Numbered from the stretch's first letter, positions 5,270 through 17,865 are shown. The stretch: DNA of 64,000 nt from an uncultured Bacteroidota bacterium (GCA_963714955.1 CAVQQJ010000008.1:2498049-2562048); one strand, 5' to 3'. The notes: a model not told the origin generated them from the letters alone. A program made the numbers and translations.

Positions 5270-7098
5270 ATGCCTAAGGCTATAGTTTCATTACGCGGAA
5301 AGAAAAGAACACGGACCTGCGGTGAGCTCCGGGCAGGGGATATCAATCAGACGGTAACGCTAAATGGCTGGGTTGATCGAAGAAGAGATTCGGCGGAGTA
5401 ATATTCATCGACTTAAGGGACCGGTATGGAAAAACGCAGATTGTCTTTGCCCCGCAGCATAACGAGTCGATTTACCAAATTGCAAAACAGCTGAGAAGTG
5501 AAGATGTTATCGCGGTGGTCGGAAAAGTCGAACACCGGCCCGAAGGTACTACAAATTCCAGCTTGCCGACGGGCGAAATCGAAGTCGTCGGAGATGATCT
5601 GTCCATTCTTAACGAGTCGGAAACGCCTCCATTTCCAATCGATAGTGAAAGCGAAGCAAGCGAGGATTTACGGCTTAAGTACCGTTTTCTTGATCTTCGC
5701 CGCGAGCAAATGCAGGCGAACCTGCAATTGCGTCACAAAACTGCGCAGGTCACGCGTCGTTATCTAGACAGACACGGATTTCTTGAGATCGAGACTCCTT
5801 TTCTGATGCGCAGTACTCCTGAAGGCGCGAGAGATTATCTCGTGCCAAGCCGGATTCATCGAGGTAAGTTCTATGCTCTTCCTCAATCCCCGCAGACTTA
5901 TAAACAAATACTGATGGTATCGGGTTTCGACAGATATTTTCAGATTGTAAAATGCTTTCGTGATGAAGATCTGCGAGCGGACCGCCAACCCGAGTTCACC
6001 CAGATAGACATCGAAATGTCGTTTATTTTGGAGGAAGACATATACGAACTGTCGGAGGGGTTGACGAGAGAGCTGTTCAAAGAAATTAAGGGGATCGATA
6101 TCGAGACACCGCTTCCTCGGTTAAGCTACGATGACGCGATTTCTAAGTATGGAAGCGATAAACCGGACTTGAGATTCGGGCTTGAGATCCAGAATGTCAC
6201 CGAACTATTGCGGGGCTCTGCGTTCAAGGTCTTCGAATCGAGCATCCAAAGTGGAAATTTCATTTGCGGGGTGAATCTCAAAGGGCAAGCGGAGCTGAGC
6301 CGCAAGCAGCTGGATGATTTGACCGAACTGGCTAAGAGTTGCGGTGCCGGTGGTCTCGTTTACTTCAAGGTCGGACTCTCGTCACTCGACTCACCTACGG
6401 CGAAACACTTTTCCACTGATCAACTGGACAAAGTGAGGCAAAAGTTTTTGGCCAAAATGGGCGATTTGATTCTTCTGATTACCCAGCCTCCAAGCAGGGT
6501 ATTCACGACTCTGGGACAGTTGCGTTTGGAACTTGCAAAACGCTTCAAGCTGATTGAAGAGAAGGCAAACTCATTATTGTGGGTCACGGAATTTCCACTC
6601 CTCGAATGGTCGGAGGATGATAAGAGATTTGCGGCTATGCATCATCCGTTCACTTCTCCGAAGGAACAGGACATTCAAGTCCTCGACGAGGGATTGAAGG
6701 AATATAACGAGAAGAAAAGGTGGCATTCCGAAAACCCGGTGAGCAAAGTCCGCGCACGAGCCTATGATTTGGTCTGGAACGGGAACGAAATTGCAGGCGG
6801 AAGCATAAGGATATTCCAACCCGAACTTCAAGAAAAGATGTTTGCATGTCTCGGCATTTCGAAGGAAGAAGCGAAAAAGAAATTCGGCCACCTTCTCGAA
6901 GCCTTCAAGTATGGTGCGCCGCCGCATGGCGGGATCGCCTTCGGATTCGATAGACTGGTAATGCTTTTCACGGGCGGGAAATCCATACGAGACGTGATTG
7001 CTTTTCCAAAAACAGCGAGTGCGGTTTCGTTGATGGATGAAGCTCCTAGCGAAGTCAGCCGGGATCAATTAATCGAGCTGCATCTAAAGATCATTTAG
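5270..7098 (+). CDS. aspS: Aspartate-tRNA ligase, reading frame interrupted by an apparent 1-nt deletion near 5387-5391
   Basis: ATG 5270 opens [40 protein letters not shown] and runs into TAA at 5399-5401. The expected continuation [22 protein letters not shown] is in the -1 frame (ttc at 5389), which is the frame of ORF 5515-7098. Class-II aaRS motifs are present: [31 protein letters not shown]. Confidence 0.9.
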
Positions 7099-7115: not shown

Positions 7116-9587
7116 GTGAACCAAATCCAACCTCAAGCGGGGAATCTCAACATGTTTTACGGATTACTCATATTTCTTGGAATTCAATCCATGGTCAATC
7201 CAAATGCCGCTGCCGCAGAAAAGCCTGTTAAGACAGTGTCGACAATCGGACAACTCAAGAGCTTGGAGAAAACCTCGAAAGCGGTCTTCGCGAAGTATGA
7301 TTCGGGAGAAGCGACTATCGAGATTTCTGAATCTGGCGTCTACCATCTTTCGGTTGCGGGAAAAAATGGCGCCAGGAAATCATTTGCAACCGTAGAACAA
7401 CCGGGGAATCTGGATGGGCACCTGGTCAGTGCAACCAGGGATGAGGTTTCGTCTGATTTCGATAACGCGACAATTGATTTTATTCCTGGGCAGTTGACCC
7501 TTGCATTTAAGCCGAAGGACGGCTCGCATCCGTTCGAGTTAACCGAGATTCAGTTCTCAGATTCTGGACTTACGGCGAAGTTTGATATTCATGGTGCCAG
7601 AAAATTTTACGGGCTCGGAGAGAAAACATTTCCTTTCAACAAATTCGGCATCCGTTCGGTGATGTGGAATTCGGATTTTCCCGCTTATTCGACCAGGTTT
7701 GATCCACTGTATGAAAGCATTCCATTTATCCTCAAAGCCGATACAAGTGGAGCATACGGCCTCTTTTTCGATAACACCTACCGGACTTCGTTCGACATCG
7801 GCGCCTCCGACAGCGACCAAATCAGCTACAGAGCTTCCGGAGGCGCGCTTGAACTTTACGTTATTACAGGGAAAAATGCGGTAGAAGTAGTAAAAAAATT
7901 CTCTGATCTAACGGGTAGAATGCCGATGCCGCCAATCTGGGCACTCGGCTACCAGCAATCCAGATGGAGTTACTACCCCGAAAAAAAGGTTCTCGATCTT
8001 GCTCACGGTTTCCGCGATAGGAACATCCCTTGCGATGTAATTTATCTGGACATCAATTACATGGATGGGTACAAGTGTTTTACTTGGAGTCCAAAGGATT
8101 TTCCCGGCCCCCGGGAAATGTTAGATACACTTCATCAGATGGGATTTAAAGTCGTTACGATAATTGACCCCGGCATTAAGGATCAGAAGGGTTATCCGGT
8201 CTATGACAGCGGCATAAGAAACGATGTGTTTGTCAAAAAGCCTGATGGAAACTACTTCGTCGGTCAGGTATGGCCCGGCGACTGTGTATTCCCCGATTTC
8301 TTGAACGAAAAGACAAGACAATGGTGGGGTGACCAATACAAGCCGCTCGTTGAATTCGGAGTGGATGGGTTTTGGAACGACATGAACGAGCCGAGTGTAT
8401 TCAATTCACCCAACAAGACTTTCCCGTTGGATGCAATCCACCACATAGATGATGAAAGAGTAGAACACGCGGAAGCCCACAATGTATACGGGATGCAAAT
8501 GGCTCGCGGAACGCGAGAAGGTCTGGAGAGGATAGAGCCGGGCAAACGTCCACTTGTCCTTACGAGAGCAAACTATGCCGGCGGACAACGCTACGCTGCG
8601 ATGTGGACGGGGGACAATTTTGCGAGCTATGCCCATCTGAGATTAGCGCTCGAAATGTTTCTGAATATAGGTGTCTGTGGACAACCGTTTGTCGGCAGCG
8701 ATGTCGGCGGTTTCGTAGGAAACCCGGACGCCGAACTTTTTTCAAGATGGCTTGAACTGGGCGCGTTCAGTCCGTTCTTTCGGACTCACAGCGTGATCGA
8801 TTCAAAACCGAGGGAGCCTTGGGCGTACGATTCGACTCACACGGAAAAGAATAGGGATATAATTAATCGTCGATATGAGTTGATGCCTGAAATCTACACT
8901 GCATTCAGGAATGCAAATCTGAACGGCCTCCCAATTGTAAGGCCGTTGTACTTGGATTATTCAGATGACGGAGAAGTGTATGATTTGTCGGATGAGTTCT
9001 TGTTTGGCGATAAGCTTTTGATTGCACCGGTCCTCGATTCGGGCGTAACGAAAAGGCAAGTCTACCTTCCGCAAAATAACAACACCGTTCTCACATGGGC
9101 GAGTTTCTATGACGGAAAGCGGTTGAGAAGCGGTTGGCATGAAGTTGATGCACCACTGGGAAAGACACCCGTGTTCGTCAGAGAAGGAACGATCCTGTTT
9201 TCTCAAAGTGACATTCAATCGACGACCGAACGAGCGGATACTCTCTTCATCAGCGTTTACGGTGAGACGAACGCGAGTGGAAATGTTTATTTTGATGACG
9301 GCGAATCGATGTCGTACAAGAATGGAGATTTCCTCGACCTTTCCGTCGCCCTAAAAGCAGATGGGAATGCGAGCCGCCTGACCTTCACGCGGAGGGGGAA
9401 CTTTATGCCAAACTACAAATTTCTTGTCGTCCAAATGAAGAATCCGGATTCGATGCCTTTCATGACTGCGGAGCTGAGTTCTGCGGTAGGCCGCGTGTCG
9501 CAGGGTGGACGTGAGCGCGTACGAGAAAATTTGATCCGGTTTGTTTTTCCATTTGACGTCGCGGTCAGGACCATAACGATGCGTTAA
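7116..9587 (+). CDS. Glycoside hydrolase family 31 alpha-glucosidase, secreted
   Basis: 823 aa with GH31 signatures YLDINYMDGYKCFTW, GFWNDMNEPS and WTGDN. The N-terminus is signal-peptide-like. The start could be GTG 7116 or ATG 7152. Confidence 0.88.
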   Translation: MNQIQPQAGNLNMFYGLLIFLGIQSMVNPNAAAAEKPVKTVSTIGQLKSLEKTSKAVFAKYDSGEATIEISESGVYHLSVAGKNGARKSFATVEQPGNLDGHLVSATRDEVSSDFDNATIDFIPGQLTLAFKPKDGSHPFELTEIQFSDSGLTAKFDIHGARKFYGLGEKTFPFNKFGIRSVMWNSDFPAYSTRFDPLYESIPFILKADTSGAYGLFFDNTYRTSFDIGASDSDQISYRASGGALELYVITGKNAVEVVKKFSDLTGRMPMPPIWALGYQQSRWSYYPEKKVLDLAHGFRDRNIPCDVIYLDINYMDGYKCFTWSPKDFPGPREMLDTLHQMGFKVVTIIDPGIKDQKGYPVYDSGIRNDVFVKKPDGNYFVGQVWPGDCVFPDFLNEKTRQWWGDQYKPLVEFGVDGFWNDMNEPSVFNSPNKTFPLDAIHHIDDERVEHAEAHNVYGMQMARGTREGLERIEPGKRPLVLTRANYAGGQRYAAMWTGDNFASYAHLRLALEMFLNIGVCGQPFVGSDVGGFVGNPDAELFSRWLELGAFSPFFRTHSVIDSKPREPWAYDSTHTEKNRDIINRRYELMPEIYTAFRNANLNGLPIVRPLYLDYSDDGEVYDLSDEFLFGDKLLIAPVLDSGVTKRQVYLPQNNNTVLTWASFYDGKRLRSGWHEVDAPLGKTPVFVREGTILFSQSDIQSTTERADTLFISVYGETNASGNVYFDDGESMSYKNGDFLDLSVALKADGNASRLTFTRRGNFMPNYKFLVVQMKNPDSMPFMTAELSSAVGRVSQGGRERVRENLIRFVFPFDVAVRTITMR

Positions 9588-9890
9588 GGCGGGTTCTGCA
9601 TTAAAGGCACCTCTTATTACAGAATCGGAACAATTTCTTTGGTAGGTCATTGAGGTTCTCACTGGCAAATAAGCCGTGTTACTTTCTTCGGTTTTCGATT
9701 ACCATCCTGTAATTCCAATTTTCCTTACTCCAAAATAGCACCTCGAAAACACAATTTTGGATGTTTCTAACGGCACGAGGTTTGTCGCTAATAATGCGAT
9801 CATGAAAAACATGAAATTGAATCTTGGTTTGGACGGGAAAGAGTTTTGCAATAAAATGTCGAAAATTTTAAAAATCTTAGGAGGTTACAA

Positions 9891-10382
9891 ATGAAAAGGT
9901 TAATGCTAGTCGCGATGGTTCTAAGCTTGGCGGGCATGTCATATGCACAGTCTAGCGCAAATGGTACAGCCACAATCAATGCCTACATCGAAAAAGGTCT
10001 CACAATGAGTGTTTCCAATTCTACTCTTAATCTTGGCAATCTAGTCGCGGGAACGACGCCGGCGGCTGTAAACCCGGCAAGCGGGACCGTCCCTACTTTC
10101 ACAGTTACAGGTGACGGCGGACACGCGGTAAATGTCACTTATGATGCATCTGTTATGTTGACTACGGCTGGCGATTCGTTATCATTTGCAACGGACTTCA
10201 GAGGTGATGGGACCAATGATCAAGCTGGAGCGACGACAGTGCCCGCATCGGTAAATCTCAGCAATAGCTCACCGGCCAGCGGCAACTTTTATATGTGGCT
10301 TGGCGGGAACGTCGGCACAATTCCTTCAGCTCAGACACCGGGAACCTATACCGGTACGTTCCATGTCTTGGTAAGTTATTGA
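9891..10382 (+). CDS. Secreted pilin-like subunit (DUF4402 / spore-coat-U-like by pattern)
   Basis: AGGAGG lies 7 nt upstream of the ATG. Signal peptide MKRLMLVAMVLSLAGMSYA/Q. The mature ~140 aa is S/T/G/N-rich and beta-rich. It has an alternating-hydrophobic N-terminus (TATINAYIEKGLTMSV) and the C-terminus GTYTGTFHVLVSY. It sits in a subunit-chaperone-usher context. Confidence 0.6.
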   Translation: MKRLMLVAMVLSLAGMSYAQSSANGTATINAYIEKGLTMSVSNSTLNLGNLVAGTTPAAVNPASGTVPTFTVTGDGGHAVNVTYDASVMLTTAGDSLSFATDFRGDGTNDQAGATTVPASVNLSNSSPASGNFYMWLGGNVGTIPSAQTPGTYTGTFHVLVSY

Positions 10383-10439
10383 TATATTAAACCGAAGGCG
10401 CTTCGAGTGAGGCGGTGCTTCGGATGGATTTTTGAGAAC

Positions 10440-10479
10440 CAGAAGGCTTAGCATTCCGTCTAAGCCTTCTGGTTTTTTC
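10440..10479 (+). terminator. Strong intrinsic terminator between the subunit gene and the chaperone gene
   Basis: ccagaaggcttag (10440-10452) and ctaagccttctgg (10461-10473) form a perfect 13-bp stem with an 8-nt loop, followed by TTTTTT (10474-10479). A weaker hairpin (ccgaag..cttcgg) lies at about 10393-10424. Confidence 0.8.
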
Positions 10480-10672
10480 TTCAGCAGGTGGTGGTGCGTG
10501 GCGATCCAGACTAAGGGCGCGGTAGTATTTGTTGGGTTCATGCGAAGCGCTTCAATTAGTTTTTCGGCGTCTCCACACAGGTCTGTGGAAGGGTGCGTGG
10601 TGCCGCCGCAGGCTTCATACCTTGGCCTATTGAATAATTGAGAAACAACCATTTATTGACTAAATTAGACCC

Positions 10673-11495
10673 ATGAAAAAGATTATAGCTTTCTCTATAG
10701 TTTTGTTGGTTTCCTCATTGACTCAGGCCCAGGTTATTGTGGCGCCAACGGTGTTATTCATGAGTGACCAGTCCAGATTCGGGACGTTCGTAGTCATGAA
10801 CCGTTCTAACACGCCGCAGGAAATATCAATCTCGTTCAGGTTTGGTTTTCCGGAATCAGATTCAGCTGGAATTACCCGGATGGAATATTCCGACACGGCC
10901 ATGGAGAGATTGCATTCTTGCCAGGAATGGCTTAAAGGCTTTCCGCAGAAATTCATTGTTAATCCGGGTCAACAGCAGGTTGTCCGTCTTCTGGTCGCAC
11001 CGCCGACAGGCATTGCCGATGGCGAGTACCTGGACCAGATTGGTGACGAGTTCCACCCCTCAAGCCAAGACGATCGATACGGTCAGGACCGGCATCACGG
11101 CGAATATCACATTCGTGCTCGAGCAAATTACGACGATCATTTACAAGCAGGGGAATGCGTCGACGACGGTGGATTTGCCAAGCATCGAAATTAGACAAGA
11201 TTCGTCGTCCGTCAACGTAGTAGCTCATGTCACGCATGGTGGAAACTCGCCGTTCTTCGGAAAGGTCACGGCAGCTGTCAAGGATAAGGCGGGGAACAAC
11301 TTGTACAGCGAAGAGCAAACGATCGCAGTTTACAGGGATAATATGTTGTTTAAGTTCTCCATACCGGCATCACGATTTCCAGAGGGTTCTTATACCGCGG
11401 ATGTCAAGTTGACTTCTGAAAGAAGCGATATTCCGGAAGACGATTTACTGAAGCTTCAGGCGGTGGAGAAAACTGTAAATTTCTCCGTCCAGTGA
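10673..11495 (+). CDS. PapD-like periplasmic pilus chaperone candidate, frame interrupted by one extra base at 11030
   Basis: Signal peptide MKKIIAFSIVLLVSSLTQA/Q. ORF 10673-11194 reads ...PPTGIADGEY, then ORF 10842-11495 continues WTRLVTSSTPQAKTIDT... from tgg at 11031 (tac-c-tgg). The joined product is ~274 aa, with two beta-sandwich-like halves. Confidence 0.6.
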
Positions 11496-11694
11496 TCCTT
11501 CCCTCGCCATCTTCGCCGGAAATTATTTAGAAAGTTTTTGTAAGACCAAGGACGGAGCGGGATATCTGTACTCGAAGGTTTTCTGGATCGGGATAATCTT
11601 CATCGTCGCCTGCATTCCTAAGGTCTCGGCACAAACAACTTTTGAGGAAGCCGAGTCCCAGGAAATCTACCTTTCCTTTAATTACAACGGTCTC

Positions 11695-14523
11695 TTGACT
11701 ACCGTTGTAACCTGCATATACCAGAATGATTCGGTTTATATTCCCATCGGAACTCTTCTCAAAGAACTCAAGATTAACGAGACTGTTGATTTGAAAGACT
11801 CCACCCTAAGTGGTTTTTTCGTTCTCTCAAGTGTTCCGTATGAAGTCAACTTTCGGAAAGGCAAAGGCAAGGTGGGGGAAAGGCTTATCGAGTTTGACAG
11901 TGCCCGGGTAATCATCGGGCAGCTCGATTTCTACGTATTGCCTTCATTAATAAAGGAGCTGTTCGATCTCGATTTTATCGTTGATTTGAGCTCGTTGACA
12001 CTCTCGCTCAATACGACCATGGAACTCCCGATTGCAACGGAATATCAGAGAGAGGCTCGACGAAGTTATGTGATAACGGCACCGGGCGCTTCCTTAATAC
12101 AGGCGCCGCTTGCTTATCCTCGAGATCGTTCGATGCTGAACGGAGGAGTCCTCGATTATTCACTCAGCGCGTTCTTGGACAAAGGAAAATCCAGTTACAA
12201 CTACGACTTTTCAGGTGGCGGCGAAGTACTTGGCGGAGAAACAGATGGATCGGTTTTCGGAAATATTTCAAGCGGAAAGTCGAGTCTTCAATCGAGTGAT
12301 CTGGGTTGGAAGTATGTTTTCGATTCTACTAACTATATAACTTATGCGGGGGCGGGCAACCTCTATTCAAATGGATTGACCCAGTATGGATTCCGGGGAG
12401 CTCAGATTTCAAATGAACCAGTTACACTAAGAACGGTTTTTAGTAATTACGCGATTGATGCCAAAACCAATCCCAACTGGGATGTGGAACTGTATCTCAA
12501 TGGGCAACTTGTCGGCTACACCAAAGCGGACGCAGGAGGAAATGCTCACTTTACCATTCCACTGGTGTACGGCACCTCGGTCATTCAACTTAAATATTAC
12601 GGCCCGAGCGGCGAAGTTGTAGAGACCGAGCGAAGACTGCAAATACCATTCACATTCGTCCCGGCCGGACAAATTACCTATACGGTCGGCGGCGGAAAAC
12701 TTAATAATAGCAATGACAATTTTCTATCCGGCGACGCCGCGATGGGAGTGGCCGATTGGCTTACGGATAAAATCGGCTCCGATTATGTTGAGGACCCGCT
12801 ATTCTCCGAGCCCCTTTTTTTTAACTCTGTTTCTGCGAGGTTTAGCTCCGAGTACATGATGAGCATCGACGCGGCACCTTCCGCGTTTTACCGTTCGGCA
12901 TTCAACGGCACGTATGCTTCCCAGACTTCGTTCGACGTAATGTACTCAAGATACGAAACCAATTTACTTTATAACCCGAGTGACAAGTTGCAGGATGCTC
13001 AGGTAGACTGTTTTGTCCCGATCGCCGTTCCAGGAGGTTCACTTAACTTGAGAGCTGTCGGCATCGGCCAGGAATACGCTGGCGGCCAACGATCATTCAG
13101 CTACTCCGGATTTGTAAACTCAAGCCTTGGCCAGTTCAACGCATCTATTGGCTATCTTCAATCAGTTTTCGAAAACGGTGGCGGCCCCTCAGTTAAAAGC
13201 TACGGTATTTCCGCCTCGGTCTTGTATTCGTTGCTGTTTGAGGAGGGAGGTTTGGCATTCCTGAACGGGGGACTCGTAGGCATGTCGACGAGGTATGGAG
13301 TGTTAAAGAATTCGCCTGACGATATACAGATGGAATTCTCGAAAAGTATCCATAGTTATTTCAGATTTCAGATTGCAGCCGAAAGGGATTTCTTGAACAA
13401 GTTTACGGTTTTCAGCCTGCAAATCATAGCCGATCTTCCATTCACACGGTCCACCACAAGTGCTCAAATTCAGAATAAGGAATCCTGGGTAACGGAGAAT
13501 ATAACCGGTTCAGTCGGATTCGACAGCAATCATAAATATTTCTCATTCAACGACCTTGGTTGGTCGGGTCATTCTGGGGCATCGGTAAGGATGTTTGTGG
13601 ACAATAACAACGACGGGGTGTACGACGATGGCGACGATCTGATCGGAGGAGGGTCGGTGATACTTCGTCAGTCCGTATTATCGGAATTATCGTCCGATGG
13701 AATTACACGGGAGTGGAACCTGTTACCTTACACCCAATACAGCGCTGACATCGACCTCAGTTCAATCAAGAATCCATTGCTGATTCCGAAGGAAAAATCG
13801 TTTTCATTTGTTACTGACCCGAATTCCTACAAGGAAATTGATGTACCATTCTTCGCCGGGGGAATAGTTGATGGTACCGTTTTGAAGACCGACGGAACGA
13901 CAACAACGGCGATCCCTGGATTGACCATTAAGATCAGATCGCTGAGCTCCGCTTTTCAAACCTCGCTATCGGTTTTCAACGATGGTACTTTTTATTATAT
14001 GGGCTTGCTGCCCGGGAGATACGAGGCTTCGGTAGATTCAAGTCAACTTGCAATGCTGGGTGTGGAAGCCGATCCGCCTGTGTTAAATTTTGAAGTCAAG
14101 AATTCAAAAAGCGGCGATTTCGTTGAAGGTCTGAAGATTATTTTGCGAGGCAAGGAGCTGAATCCAATTCCAGCTATAACCGCAACCACAACGGTTAAAA
14201 CCGATCAGCTTCCGGAAAAGCCGCCCGAGGTCAAAATTCCCCCGACGGCCGTCGTGTCAATTCCCAACAAAGAAAAATTTGTAATTCAGATCAGCGCTTT
14301 CAAAGGCCGACAAGACGCTGAGAGATTTGCAGCGAGGGCGACGAAAAAGACAAAGGAGAGACTTAATATTTCTCTGGATGAGAATTCGAAGCTCTACGTG
14401 GTCGAATCTGATACAATCGAGACGATAGAAGATGCTATGCAGAAGCTCTCTCTATTTCGCTACAAGTCTCAGTATAAGAATGCTTTTATCATGGACAGCA
14501 CAGGAAAACGTATTTTCCCTTAG
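11695..14523 (+). CDS. Usher-like outer-membrane protein with C-terminal CarboxypepD_reg-like and SPOR domains
   Basis: 942-aa ORF. An usher-type motif NWDVELYLNGQLVGYTKADAGGNAHFTIPLVYGTSVIQLKYYGPSGEVVETERRLQIPF lies at nt ~12478-12657. A long G/S/Y/F-rich barrel-like region follows. A DNNNDGVYDDGDD acidic loop is present. GIVDGTVLKTDGTT..GLLPGRYEASV looks CarboxypepD_reg-like. A Pro-rich linker precedes the SPOR-like FVIQISAFKGRQDAERFAARATKK..LYVVESD. An in-frame signal peptide (YSKVFWIGIIFIVACIPKVSA/Q) lies upstream, so the real start is probably near CTG 11566. Confidence 0.6.
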   Translation: MTTVVTCIYQNDSVYIPIGTLLKELKINETVDLKDSTLSGFFVLSSVPYEVNFRKGKGKVGERLIEFDSARVIIGQLDFYVLPSLIKELFDLDFIVDLSSLTLSLNTTMELPIATEYQREARRSYVITAPGASLIQAPLAYPRDRSMLNGGVLDYSLSAFLDKGKSSYNYDFSGGGEVLGGETDGSVFGNISSGKSSLQSSDLGWKYVFDSTNYITYAGAGNLYSNGLTQYGFRGAQISNEPVTLRTVFSNYAIDAKTNPNWDVELYLNGQLVGYTKADAGGNAHFTIPLVYGTSVIQLKYYGPSGEVVETERRLQIPFTFVPAGQITYTVGGGKLNNSNDNFLSGDAAMGVADWLTDKIGSDYVEDPLFSEPLFFNSVSARFSSEYMMSIDAAPSAFYRSAFNGTYASQTSFDVMYSRYETNLLYNPSDKLQDAQVDCFVPIAVPGGSLNLRAVGIGQEYAGGQRSFSYSGFVNSSLGQFNASIGYLQSVFENGGGPSVKSYGISASVLYSLLFEEGGLAFLNGGLVGMSTRYGVLKNSPDDIQMEFSKSIHSYFRFQIAAERDFLNKFTVFSLQIIADLPFTRSTTSAQIQNKESWVTENITGSVGFDSNHKYFSFNDLGWSGHSGASVRMFVDNNNDGVYDDGDDLIGGGSVILRQSVLSELSSDGITREWNLLPYTQYSADIDLSSIKNPLLIPKEKSFSFVTDPNSYKEIDVPFFAGGIVDGTVLKTDGTTTTAIPGLTIKIRSLSSAFQTSLSVFNDGTFYYMGLLPGRYEASVDSSQLAMLGVEADPPVLNFEVKNSKSGDFVEGLKIILRGKELNPIPAITATTTVKTDQLPEKPPEVKIPPTAVVSIPNKEKFVIQISAFKGRQDAERFAARATKKTKERLNISLDENSKLYVVESDTIETIEDAMQKLSLFRYKSQYKNAFIMDSTGKRIFP

Positions 14524-15077
14524 GGTAGAAATCGCTCGGATTAAGTAGTTAGGGGCGTTGCTTCAGACGGAACCATCTTCCCATCCAGGTCGCTGTGTCT
14601 CTTCAAGGAGTGTCTATCATATATTTTACTCATGAAGTCCCGCAACTCTTTTAAGCCGATTAGGTAATGATTACAATCTATTGTGAAGTCGCGTGAAGAG
14701 AGAGATGATTTGTTCTTCATTGACGCCGACAAGAGGTCTCAATTGGTTGGATTGAGTTTCCTATCGTTGGAAGAAAATCGAGCCCAAACGTACAGAGTAA
14801 CTTAAAAACTGCTTCTTGGATGCGCCACGGAGGGCGCGTTCGTTCCGGTAAATAGTTCTTTCCCGTTCTAATCTCCTTACGTATCATTCCTGACTATTCG
14901 TGCCTTCAATTTCGAGGCATTTAATCGCTTTTCTAGTTCGACAAGGGGCCGCGACATGGGCGGAGAACTATTTTTGATTGCCGCGGGTTAGAGTATTTAA
15001 TGAGATGAAAGCCACTGGAAATGTGGTTTGCAAAAGCACTAATGACTTGATCTTCAACTAGTTCAAGTCGGAGGGAT

Positions 15078-15431
15078 TTGAGGATAGGAGTGAAGAGCGC
15101 AATCCTATTAGGATTTCTTGGATTCCTGATGTGGGCATTCGAATTGCATGCGCAAGTGAGCACCACTGCAACCGTGACCCTAACCGTGTTACCGGCATCC
15201 GGAGTCGAACTCTTTAGTACGATTCTTGAACGCTTGTACCATTTAGAAGAGGAAGTAGGCACTGTAGAATCAGCGCGGGAATCATCTGCTGATGCTCAAT
15301 TTGTCTTCGATTCATGCAACGGAGAAGTCTCTTTGAAACCGTTGAAGGGGGATAGTATCGTTGCAGGATTACACAATCCTAAAGGCCCAAGAAGAGTGCA
15401 GATCCTAGAGATCGATTACCTAGGGAACTAA
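15078..15431 (+). CDS. Small secreted hypothetical protein
   Basis: 117-aa ORF with the signal-peptide-like N-terminus KSAILLGFLGFLMWAFELHA/Q. The mature N-terminus VSTTATVTLTVLPASG is beta-strand-like. I recognise no family. The start (TTG 15078 or GTG 15090) is uncertain. Confidence 0.4.
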   Translation: MRIGVKSAILLGFLGFLMWAFELHAQVSTTATVTLTVLPASGVELFSTILERLYHLEEEVGTVESARESSADAQFVFDSCNGEVSLKPLKGDSIVAGLHNPKGPRRVQILEIDYLGN

Positions 15432-15587
15432 GGCTCCGTTCCAACTTTTCAGCACAAATTTCCGGGAAAAATCCGTAACTCGAACGTACGATTACGTAAT
15501 GCGTCGGTGCAAATTGAAAACCCATGCACCCATTTCCTCATCCTTTTCACCAATTCAACCGGCATAATTAATGTACCATGACACTCA

Positions 15588-16061
15588 GTGGCAAACTTTA
15601 CAATAACATCCGATTTCCATAGGCTCTTTGAGACGGTTAGAATACCGTTCGTTGTCACCGACAGCGAGCTCAGTCTCATCTATGCTAATCCATATGCACA
15701 TCAGACACTTCCTCTCGACCTTGAAACCGGGAAAAGGTTGAACATTGAGGATTTTATGCAGCTGGAAGATTCCACTCCGTTCGATGCCGTGGTCAGCGAG
15801 TGCAAAGAACAGGGCGAGGGGATCGGAACGCTGAAGCAGAGAGGCACCGACAGATATTTCAGGGTCAAGGCGTATTACCTTAAGGGAACAAATTGTGAAA
15901 TAATTTTCCACTTTGATGATGTCTCTCAAGTCAGGGTTCTTGAGAATCAATTCTACGATCAGCTCGTAGATCTTTACAATCAACTAGAGACAAAAGAACG
16001 CGAAATTGCCAGCTTGAAGAGCAGTGTGCTTCAGTCGAAAGAATTGAGTCAAAGAAGCTAA
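15588..16061 (+). CDS. Stand-alone PAS-like domain protein with a C-terminal coiled coil
   Basis: 157 aa with a GTG start. The PAS-like pattern is FHRLFETVRIPFVVTDSELSLIYANPYAHQTL...YFRVKAYYL...IIFHFDDVS, followed by the heptad-like tail LENQFYDQLVDLYNQLETKEREIASLKSSV. No output domain is present. Confidence 0.5.
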   Translation: MANFTITSDFHRLFETVRIPFVVTDSELSLIYANPYAHQTLPLDLETGKRLNIEDFMQLEDSTPFDAVVSECKEQGEGIGTLKQRGTDRYFRVKAYYLKGTNCEIIFHFDDVSQVRVLENQFYDQLVDLYNQLETKEREIASLKSSVLQSKELSQRS

Positions 16062-16266
16062 GCGCCGCCCGCGCTTTTCACCCCTACTCCTGCCAGCTCT
16101 TTCCACCAACTCCATAAACCGCAGTTCCTCCAGCTAAGGGGTTGCAATCAAACATAGGGGGCTTCGAGAGTGCCACTCCTTAGTTAGTGAACGCAGTATA
16201 ATGTCAGTAGCTATGAGGTGCCCTTGGCAAGTATATACTCGACTGAATATTTCGAGTCCCCTGTTC

Positions 16267-17865
16267 TCAGTTAGGCCTCAATCTCCAATCGAGATTCGCC
16301 ACTTTCCAACCCGTCAAAAAAATTAGCTTTGCCCGCTTTTCGAGGATGGGAAAAGTGATTTTGTCGCTCGTGTCGGTTGGTTTGTGATAGTCGGGGTGGT
16401 TGCCGTCGAAGAAGAATATTACGGGTACATTTTTCTTCGCGAAATTGTAATGATCGCTGCGATAATAAAACTGGTTAGGATCGTTGTCGGAATCGAATGA
16501 ATAGTCGAGCTTTAGTCCGACCGATTGGCTGTCCGCGGCGACGAGCAAAGAATCGAGATTCTTGCTGAGTCTTGAGCTTCCGATAACGAACACATAGTTA
16601 CTATCTCGATTCACGTATGACGTATCAATCCTTCCATCCATGTCCGTATTGAGGTCGGTGACGATATTCGTCATCGGGACAGTCGGGTGACTTGTGAAGT
16701 AGTCCGAGCCGAGAAGCCCTTTTTCCTCGCCGGTCACCGTAAGAAAAATTATGCTCCTCCTAGGTCTCGTCTGCATTTTCGAATACAACTCCGCTATTCC
16801 GAGGACCGTGCTTGTTCCGGAAGCATTGTCGTCAGCACCATGGTACACTACACCGGTGGCAGTTTTTCCGAGATGGTCGTAGTGGGCAGAATAGACAACG
16901 TACTGGTCTTTCAGCGAGGGATCGGTTCCTTCAAGCATCCCTATGACATTTTCAGTTTGTCGCGTTTCGCTGACAATCTTCACGCATACCGTCACTTCGC
17001 CGAGCTGCATCGACGCCGGTGATTTCAATGAGTCTATTCTCGCGGCCACCGTCTCAACATCCGTGTTCGCAGCTTTCATCATCTGATCTGCGACTTTGTT
17101 TCTTATATAGAGAACCTGCGTCGTGGCCGGAATCCTGGCTTCCTTCGCGGGACTTGCCAGTTTCATCGTCTTGTTGCCGAAGAGTGAGCCGAATTGTTGA
17201 ACGATCCTGGCAACCTCCTTGTCGCCTCCGCGCATGACGATGAGAACGGCTGCTGCTCCGTGCCTTACGGCGTTGCTCCGTTTGTACAACGCCGTTCTAA
17301 TCATGATGTCATTCGTATCGGCAAATGCCGGATTCCCTGACATAATGACGACGATTCGTCCCTTTACATTCAATCCTTGATAGTCCGAATAAGTGCCGTC
17401 TTCGAAACCATAGCCTGCGAAGACCGCCTGCGCGGTGAGGGTCGTGTCAGCGGCGCCGAACGGCGGTACCACAACGTCACTTCCATTTTGGAAATATTTG
17501 CCGCCGGCTTCGACGAAAGAAGAATCGCTGATATAGTGCAGGTCGACATTGAAATGCTGGAGGTAACTCCCGTCGTCACCTATTGGCTTCAGACCAAATT
17601 CCTTGAACTGGCGGGCGATGAAGTCTGCAGCTTTTATCTGCCCGGGCTCGCATGTCTCGCGTCCCTCAAGAGAATCGGAAGCCAGATAATTTAGATCATG
17701 GCGAACGTGAGCGATCGGAAATTGTCTCAATGCTTCTCTGCCGGCGGCATCGTAGTTTGCCTTCGATCCGGATTGTTGATCTACAAGATTTACACCCCTC
17801 ATTGGGGCGATGGATGCGGATAAGCCAAGCAATCCGATTGTCGCATAATATCGAAGGTGAGTCAT
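16267..17865 (-). CDS. M28 family metallopeptidase (aminopeptidase) with a PA domain, secreted
   Basis: 532 aa. Zn-ligand motifs are YSAHYDHLG, GADDNASGTSTVLGIAE and TGEEKGLLGSDYF. The N-terminus is signal-peptide-like. Confidence 0.85.
   Translation of the reverse strand: MTHLRYYATIGLLGLSASIAPMRGVNLVDQQSGSKANYDAAGREALRQFPIAHVRHDLNYLASDSLEGRETCEPGQIKAADFIARQFKEFGLKPIGDDGSYLQHFNVDLHYISDSSFVEAGGKYFQNGSDVVVPPFGAADTTLTAQAVFAGYGFEDGTYSDYQGLNVKGRIVVIMSGNPAFADTNDIMIRTALYKRSNAVRHGAAAVLIVMRGGDKEVARIVQQFGSLFGNKTMKLASPAKEARIPATTQVLYIRNKVADQMMKAANTDVETVAARIDSLKSPASMQLGEVTVCVKIVSETRQTENVIGMLEGTDPSLKDQYVVYSAHYDHLGKTATGVVYHGADDNASGTSTVLGIAELYSKMQTRPRRSIIFLTVTGEEKGLLGSDYFTSHPTVPMTNIVTDLNTDMDGRIDTSYVNRDSNYVFVIGSSRLSKNLDSLLVAADSQSVGLKLDYSFDSDNDPNQFYYRSDHYNFAKKNVPVIFFFDGNHPDYHKPTDTSDKITFPILEKRAKLIFLTGWKVANLDWRLRPN

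Follow-up and report, generated by a model that had tools for sequence, protein, structure and literature searches.

We analysed a 64,000-nucleotide stretch of DNA from an uncultured Bacteroidota bacterium (GCA_963714955.1, CAVQQJ010000008.1:2498049-2562048; the window hereafter), in which three co-directional genes at positions 9891-14523 of the + strand very probably constitute a real, though very divergent, chaperone-usher fibre-assembly locus. The genes encode, in this order, a secreted subunit of the DUF4402 family, a chaperone modelled with the PapD fold, and a large usher modelled with the fold of FimD and PapC and ending in a SPOR-like tail. A preliminary description of the window had proposed a subunit, a chaperone and an usher at this site. 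The peptides it quoted (TATINAYIEKGLTMSV, GTYTGTFHVLVSY and VELYLNGQLVGYTKADAGG...RRLQIPF) were all found in translations of the window, and the strand and position of the three genes were confirmed, while the reading frame of the chaperone and the start of the usher needed correction.

Predicted structure of the usher

The usher gene (11566-14523, + strand) encodes 985 aa when read from a probable CTG start that lies ahead of an in-frame signal peptide. The AlphaFold2 (AF2) model of the protein had a predicted local distance difference test (pLDDT) score of 86.2, and assignment of secondary structure with DSSP divided it into an N-terminal periplasmic domain (residues 32-149; 11659-12012), a β-barrel (residues 191-653; 12136-13524) and two C-terminal β-sandwich domains (residues 658-730 and 739-862; 13537-14151). 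The barrel consists of 6 strands, a plug and a further 18 strands, 24 in all. The plug (residues 291-360; 12436-12645) has six strands in the model, gives a weak Pfam match to the TcfC E-set and holds VELYLNGQLVGY...RRLQIPF; the VELYLNGQ motif that had been quoted as usher-like lies inside it. A Foldseek search of the PDB returned FimD or PapC as all of the 18 best matches (E 3.3e-29 to 1.8e-10, with up to 900 or more aligned columns), and matches to the barrel were the translocation pores of PapC and FimD (2vqi, 3fip and 3ohn). The large protein is thus modelled as an usher with an N-terminal domain, two C-terminal domains and, as the preliminary description had anticipated, a 24-strand barrel with a plug, which lies after strand 6.

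With hhalign, the usher family profile aligned to CsuD of the archaic clade at 93.4% probability (E 2.4e-7) over 525 columns, which include the plug and the barrel and reach into the C-terminal domains, and the plug motif was aligned to the CsuD stretch VDLIINGQK. The window usher itself had no match to the Pfam Usher family (PF00577) at E <= 10 and none to PapC_C. Sub-threshold matches to PF00577 were seen in four of the eight relatives scanned, all ending near profile position 202-204; the best of these (P0064) reached 25.6 bits against a cut-off of 27.1 over profile positions ~139-204, which are equivalent to the plug region. When the usher profile was searched by sequence against the PDB, no usher was recovered, and only SdrD-B-like and SPOR pieces matched.

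The second C-terminal domain resembles CarboxypepD_reg and SdrD_B, with a weak Pfam match to CarboxypepD_reg and a profile match to the SdrD B domain in the PDB (E 3.3e-7). It is followed by a disordered linker (residues 865-901) and by residues 905-985 (14278-14520), which form a strand-helix-strand-strand-helix-strand arrangement in the model with pLDDT above 90. A SPOR domain had been suspected here. The family profile supports the suspicion, with matches to SPOR domains in the PDB (CwlC 1x60, E 5e-4; FtsN 1uta, weak, E 0.22), as do the model and the precomputed PF05036 matches carried by many homologues, while the window protein is borderline in Pfam (20.2 bits against a cut-off of 21). 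Residues 905-985 are therefore probably a SPOR domain, predicted from its family to bind peptidoglycan. The C-terminal module differs among relatives, being SPOR, TPR, OmpA or none. The same genome also encodes a second usher paralogue (P0061; 1237 aa, 30% identical), in which a C-terminal TPR array replaces SPOR.

Start codon of the usher gene

Gene callers start the usher at TTG 11695, giving a 942-aa open reading frame (ORF) without a signal peptide. Upstream of this codon, the in-frame sequence reads LYSKVFWIGIIFIVACIPKVSA|QTTFEEAESQEIYLSF (mature start QTTFEE...) and aligns to the N-termini of full-length homologues. There is no in-frame ATG, GTG or TTG ahead of the signal peptide and, since no canonical codon is available, we take CTG 11566, with GGAG 8 nt upstream, as the likely start from the sequence.

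This arrangement recurs in many species of the Kryptonia clade, whose usher genes lack a canonical start; they retain a Shine-Dalgarno sequence ahead of an ATC or CTG, and their ORF of 1000 aa is intact. At several loci (L003-L018 set) the order is GGGAG, 6 nt and ATC (ICARRFIW...), and in the window (region 11545-11570) and in L001-L005 an in-frame CTG lies within a shared ATCTG (LYSKVFW...), so that a 1-nt difference decides whether ATC or CTG is in frame. Because a canonical start codon is absent, gene callers often miss the signal peptides of these ushers. The non-canonical start may keep translation of the usher low.

Repair and fold of the chaperone

The gene between subunit and usher (10673-11495, + strand) spans 823 nt and is split in the window between two frames, 10673-11194 and 10842-11495. 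Deleting one C of TACCTGG at ~11029 joins the frames (...GIADGEY|WTRLVTSS...) into a protein of 273 aa with signal peptide cleavage at TQA|QV, which matches P0086 from end to end at 100% identity. In two independent short-read assemblies that are 99.9% identical to the window (L001 and L002), the chaperone is intact, and the absence of that C is its sole difference from the window. A C is likewise missing from the window near 5389, within the essential aspS gene, whose ORF (5515-7098) comes out at 527 aa in the window, compared with 609 aa in L001. Since both sister assemblies lack the extra C and aspS also bears an indel, the extra C at 11029 is an assembly indel. A programmed frameshift was rejected, as the sister assemblies merely lack the extra C. 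As both 11029 and 5389 look like indel errors, other ORFs of the window may be broken likewise. Residues G117, Y119, W120 and R122 at the repaired junction are invariant across the chaperone family.

The AF2 model of the repaired protein (pLDDT 89.8, predicted template modelling score 0.81) has two β-sandwich domains, and its Foldseek matches in the PDB were almost all pilus chaperones (EcpB, YadV, FimC, CfaA, CupB2, CsuC, Caf1M, SafB, DraB and PapD; E 1e-9 to 4e-7). The middle protein, proposed earlier to be PapD-like, is thus modelled as a two-domain PapD-fold chaperone, while its sequence stays below the PapD_N threshold (PF00345; 14 bits against a cut-off of 23, E 0.05, in a match that spans the repaired junction). 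Sub-threshold PapD_N matches were found in 34 of 52 chaperone relatives, and other families were matched far less often. In a weak alignment with CsuC, GEYWTRLV of the window chaperone stands opposite GKEQSYRLIV, and ITFVLEQITTIIYKQG stands opposite VSFQMRYSIPLFAYGKG; from the strand positions in the model, we take the two window stretches to be the putative F1 and G1 strands, a correspondence that is no more than suggestive.

The DUF4402 subunit and the spacer downstream

The fibre subunit gene (9891-10382, + strand) encodes 163 aa, and a Shine-Dalgarno sequence, AGGAGG (9879-9884), can be read 6 nt ahead of its ATG. The signal peptide is cleaved after SYA|QS, hydrophobic residues alternate in the N-terminal extension (TATINAYIEK), and the protein carries the C-terminal motif GTYTGTFHVLVSY. 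The preliminary description had associated the protein with DUF4402, and it passes the Pfam model of that family (PF14352; 33.7 bits, gathering cut-off 25.2, E 6.6e-8, residues 55-163); 69 of the 71 subunits sampled from related loci also match DUF4402.

We compared the mature subunit family with the CsuA/B family using hhalign, and obtained an alignment that was colinear end to end at 72% probability (E 3.5e-5, with -M 50); a reversed control gave 0.6%, and the -M first setting gave 11%. In this alignment the N-terminal extension, through the segment SANGTATINAYIEK, lies opposite the Csu donor strand, and at the C-termini GTYTGTFHVLVSY lies opposite GDYKDTLLVTVNF; the two families share the motifs L.FG and G.Y..t..vtV.[YF].

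Some relatives carry tandem two-domain DUF4402 proteins of ~300-320 aa directly 5' of the chaperone gene (L004:7005-7958, L005, L007:7044-7958, L012:7008-7958, L019 and L027:7011-7958). Two-domain subunits in relatives (~310 aa) start a median of ~11 residues ahead of the L.FG motif and single-domain subunits a median of ~25 residues ahead of it, while the window subunit starts 26 residues ahead of its own variant, L.LG. The difference implies a ~14-residue N-terminal extension on the presumptive polymerising subunits that the presumptive tip subunits do not have, a pattern that, as far as sequence goes, is as expected for the polymerising and tip subunits of known chaperone-usher pili. We regard the two-domain proteins as candidate tip adhesins, and none is encoded in the window strain. 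By the same comparison, the window subunit would have an incomplete immunoglobulin (Ig) fold that lacks the G strand, with the N-terminal extension serving as donor strand.

The spacer between the subunit and chaperone genes contains a hairpin of ~18 bp followed by UUUUUU (10434-10483), an intrinsic terminator or attenuator, and a smaller hairpin (10392-10423) precedes it. A simple terminator scan detected the smaller hairpin alone; the main one emerged from RNA folding, in which the 121 nt of 10380-10500 gave -47.4 kcal/mol (z = -4.15), and none of 200 shuffled sequences was as stable. The strong terminator reported earlier 3' of the subunit gene is thus present. No Rfam match was found across 9400-16300. 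The Logan annotations of L001 and L002 include, as a gene, a 108-aa antisense ORF (10326-10652, - strand) that spans the spacer. Lying over the terminator hairpins and matching no family on record, it is probably spurious.

Distribution and annotation of the cassette

Related loci were collected by a scan with a chaperone motif, one genome per species, which returned 116 loci, 80 of which were kept. Nearly all of these 80 carry one to seven DUF4402-type subunit genes, the chaperone gene and the usher gene, in this order and on one strand, and the synteny that the preliminary description had looked for is therefore found in relatives. Protein identity across relatives is 55-85%. The closest homologues are named as coming from Candidatus Kryptoniota or Kryptonia, of the Fibrobacteres-Chlorobi-Bacteroidetes (FCB) group, and by these names the source organism of the window belongs there too. 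Going by the labels of the metagenome-assembled genomes (MAGs), the hosts comprise Kryptoniota or 'Bacteroidetes', many Gemmatimonadota, Balneolales, Bacteroidales, Ignavibacteria, Zixibacteria, Neomarinimicrobiota, Eisenbacteria and GN15. Searched against clusters formed at 50% identity, the usher profile found 11,264 with E <= 1e-3, of which 2,788 reached E <= 1e-30; for the weaker of these, the match may stem from the accessory domains alone.

The order of subunit(s), chaperone and usher also occurs in two relatives (L083 and L084), next to P0064, a TPR-type relative of the paralogue P0061, and on plasmid pE5SP1 of Polaromonas sp. E5S, a cultured betaproteobacterium (L086; 51860-57125), where transposases flank the cassette and the usher matches the family profile at E 6e-73. 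The system, placed earlier in an FCB-type genome, thus extends beyond such genomes to Gemmatimonadota and to this plasmid. Megaplasmid pDF308 of Deferribacter desulfuricans (L085) carries a DUF4402 gene and a weak match to the chaperone profile, with no match to the usher profile nearby. A plasmid-borne cassette together with transposases and insertion sequence (IS) elements suggests horizontal mobility. On pDF308, the DUF4402 gene adjoins an IS200/IS605 element, a gene for an ATPase of the type II secretion system/type IV pilus/type IV secretion system (T2SS/T4P/T4SS) family lies further downstream, and the plasmid types as MPF_I. A PAS/GAF histidine kinase gene lies 3' of the P0064 locus.

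Ushers of this family are at present labelled 'SPOR domain-containing', 'OmpA family', 'TolA-binding', 'carboxypeptidase-like regulatory domain' or hypothetical, and on pE5SP1 PGAP names the usher 'carboxypeptidase-like regulatory domain-containing protein' and the chaperone 'molecular chaperone'. NCBIfam gave nothing meaningful for the subunit, the chaperone, the usher or the small secreted protein described below. The literature that we searched held no mention of DUF4402 and nothing relevant on chaperone-usher systems in Bacteroidota or Gemmatimonadota; databases are not wholly silent, as some of the chaperones appear in IMG under the name 'P pilus assembly chaperone PapD' and the PGAP label of the plasmid chaperone points the same way in part.

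A small secreted protein encoded downstream of the usher

A gene for a small secreted protein of 113 aa (15090-15431, + strand; mature N-terminus QVSTTATVTLTVLPASG, C-terminus EIDYLGN) is conserved 3' of the usher. A further 16 loci of the Kryptonia clade carry orthologues on the same strand, 150-530 bp 3' of the usher. The protein has no Pfam match. Its similarity to the subunit profile is weak, and its N-terminus resembles the N-terminal extension of the subunit. It may be a minor component or subunit, an initiator or a terminator. The locus had been described as having a single subunit and no tip adhesin. This holds for the window strain itself, but it takes no account of this conserved downstream gene or of the two to seven subunit genes present in most relatives. 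A 157-aa ORF (15588-16061, + strand) lies 3' of the locus.

Comparison with known systems and placement

We used the Csu locus of Acinetobacter baumannii as a control for the same Pfam models. All four Csu subunits matched SCPU, the chaperone matched PapD_N, and the usher matched both Usher and PapC_C, all strongly. Among the Pfam families that had been named for the window proteins, DUF4402 was passed, SCPU and Usher were not matched, and PapD_N and SPOR remained under their cut-offs. The locus thus lacks the Pfam signature looked for in the archaic clade (an SCPU subunit, a PF00345 chaperone and a PF00577/PapC_C usher). In its working the system would resemble archaic and classical chaperone-usher systems, but membership of the archaic clade is not established; all three components fail the SCPU, PapD_N and Usher models.

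A far-reaching possibility, to which we give a little less than an even chance, is a separate deep-branching chaperone-usher clade outside the six named ones, with DUF4402 subunits, a divergent PapD-fold chaperone and long ushers bearing peptidoglycan-binding or TPR modules. In the FCB group and Gemmatimonadota, from which no chaperone-usher pili are known to have been reported, it would be the principal route to usher-dependent fibres, and its conserved ATC and CTG starts would set a low usher output.

Rather less likely, in our view, is that the locus is a divergent member of the described archaic (sigma) clade of the Csu, CupE (Pseudomonas aeruginosa) and spore-coat-protein-U type, and not a lineage of its own. 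The likenesses to Csu are considerable. The Csu genes follow the same order of subunit(s), chaperone and usher; CsuC (5d6h and 6fqa) gives the highest query-normalised template modelling scores for the chaperone (0.50-0.51); the usher is homologous to CsuD at the level of profiles, over the 525 columns described above; and the subunit runs colinear with CsuA/B, matching it in the position of the donor strand, in the L.FG motif and in the C-terminal G.Y...V.V.[YF] motif. The archaic clade is also the most widespread, reaching from Proteobacteria to Cyanobacteria and Deinococcus-Thermus (PMC4654587). The hosts of the present system, in contrast, belong to the FCB group and Gemmatimonadota. The Csu control passes SCPU, PapD_N, Usher and PapC_C, whereas none of the three window components passes its model: the subunits here are DUF4402 and not SCPU, neither chaperone nor usher reaches the threshold of its model (PapD_N and Usher), and PapC_C is not matched. 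The ushers here are 165-400 aa longer and bear a C-terminal domain like CarboxypepD_reg as well as SPOR, TPR or OmpA modules; such peptidoglycan-binding or TPR modules are absent from the control CsuD, the sole archaic usher examined. Finally, the two-domain subunits of relatives are encoded 5' of the chaperone, whereas CsuE is encoded 3' of the usher.

The best structural matches of the usher are full-length matches to ushers of the Fim and Pap systems (9fw9_D, 9bog_D, 3rfz and 7lhg), which likewise hold the plug after barrel strand 6, and in the pap and fim operons a terminator lies 3' of the major subunit gene, as it does here. Sequence identity of the window usher to FimD and PapC is, however, ~12%, and the window locus differs from these operons in having no Fimbrial (PF00419) subunits and, in this strain, a single subunit without adaptor or tip subunits. 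In this respect it resembles the F1 antigen locus of Yersinia pestis (Caf1, Caf1M and Caf1A), where chaperone and usher genes likewise accompany a single subunit gene, and Caf1M is among the structural matches of the window chaperone. Both the subunit and the small protein encoded downstream (TATATVTLTV) have a T/A-rich N-terminal strand of alternating pattern, which presumably resembles the donor strand of Caf1; Caf1 itself belongs to another subunit family with no detectable sequence relationship. No caf1R-like regulator gene was seen adjoining the locus, although no dedicated search for linked regulators was made. Type V pili (FimA and Mfa1) are likewise surface fibres of the FCB group thought to be built by strand exchange, which is predicted here. 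They depend on lipoprotein sorting and proteolytic activation and are not known to use an usher or a PapD-like chaperone, and the window locus represents another pathway because it has both.

An usher-like barrel could instead export or display DUF4402 proteins without a donor-strand fibre, as a monomeric coat, an amorphous capsule-like layer or a substrate-binding protein. The single subunit gene and the missing tip adhesin of the window locus would fit such a role, the fold and polymerisation of the subunit are predictions, and we know of no described precedent for a peptidoglycan-tethered usher among fibre-forming systems. We nevertheless consider this improbable. The usher keeps the N-terminal docking domain, the plug and the two C-terminal domains that serve the handover of chaperone-subunit complexes in FimD and PapC; a dedicated PapD-fold chaperone is always encoded beside it; and relatives have several subunits together with two-domain subunits lacking the extension, as in tipped pili. 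Single-subunit systems such as Caf1, moreover, form donor-strand-linked polymers.

A decaying pseudogene cluster, suggested by the broken chaperone frame at ~11029 and by the lack of an ATG, GTG or TTG start for the usher, is hardly credible and was rejected, given the intact chaperone of the two sister assemblies, the aspS indel that points to assembly errors, the non-canonical usher start common to many species of the clade with Shine-Dalgarno sequence and ORF kept, and the 55-85% identity kept across relatives.

Several observations weigh against the interpretation of the locus as a fibre-forming chaperone-usher system. The window subunit had no match to SCPU (PF05229) at E <= 1, and just 6 of 71 related subunits matched it, at E 0.054 or worse. 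Sequence searches of the PDB with the subunit alone and with the subunit-family profile found no pilin, and the incomplete Ig fold and the donor strand are predictions from sequence comparison. An initial hhalign score of 96% between DUF4402 subunits and CsuA/B was discarded because signal peptides had been included and drove the score; mature sequences gave 11-72%, depending on the setting. The chaperone-family profile, searched by sequence against the PDB, returned nothing, its hhalign comparison with CsuC gave a probability of 9%, and no equivalent of PapD Arg8 is evident in the N-terminal strand VAPTVLF of the chaperone as read from the sequence. The expression level of the usher is uncertain because it has no canonical start codon. 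Lastly, members of the family come nearly all from uncultured MAGs, and in every one of them the fibre is a prediction.

A proposed model for fibre assembly

We infer the following pathway, every step of which rests on homology and anatomy. The subunit, chaperone and usher would be exported by Sec; with the corrected gene models, each of the three begins with a signal peptide. In the periplasm, the two-domain PapD-fold chaperone would cap the subunit, with the chaperone strand around ITFVLEQITTIIYK as the putative donor. The chaperone-subunit complex would then dock on the N-terminal domain of the usher and the plug would be displaced, after which the N-terminal extension of an incoming subunit would displace the chaperone strand by donor-strand exchange. 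With one subunit type, the growing fibre would be a thin homopolymer threaded outward through the usher.

The anatomy of the locus suggests how the components could be balanced. The terminator 3' of the subunit gene may allow the subunit transcript to exceed that of chaperone and usher, and the non-canonical start codon may lower the output of the usher further. The SPOR tail, in whose place relatives have TPR or OmpA modules, could anchor the usher to peptidoglycan on its periplasmic side; such a tether is topologically plausible because the C-terminal domains of the usher are periplasmic.

Significance of the system

The fibres known so far from Bacteroidota are type V pili, which are built by a separate pathway. 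The present findings show that complete cassettes of chaperone-usher type occur commonly in Kryptoniota, Gemmatimonadota, Bacteroidota, Ignavibacteria and Zixibacteria, where standard annotation has missed them. DUF4402 gains a testable function, that of a fibre subunit, and the plasmid pE5SP1 of Polaromonas sp. E5S offers a cultured entry point. The architecture of the usher raises a mechanistic question, namely what effect its tethering to peptidoglycan would have. For abundant phyla of soil and sediment, the system represents a candidate adhesion or biofilm organelle.

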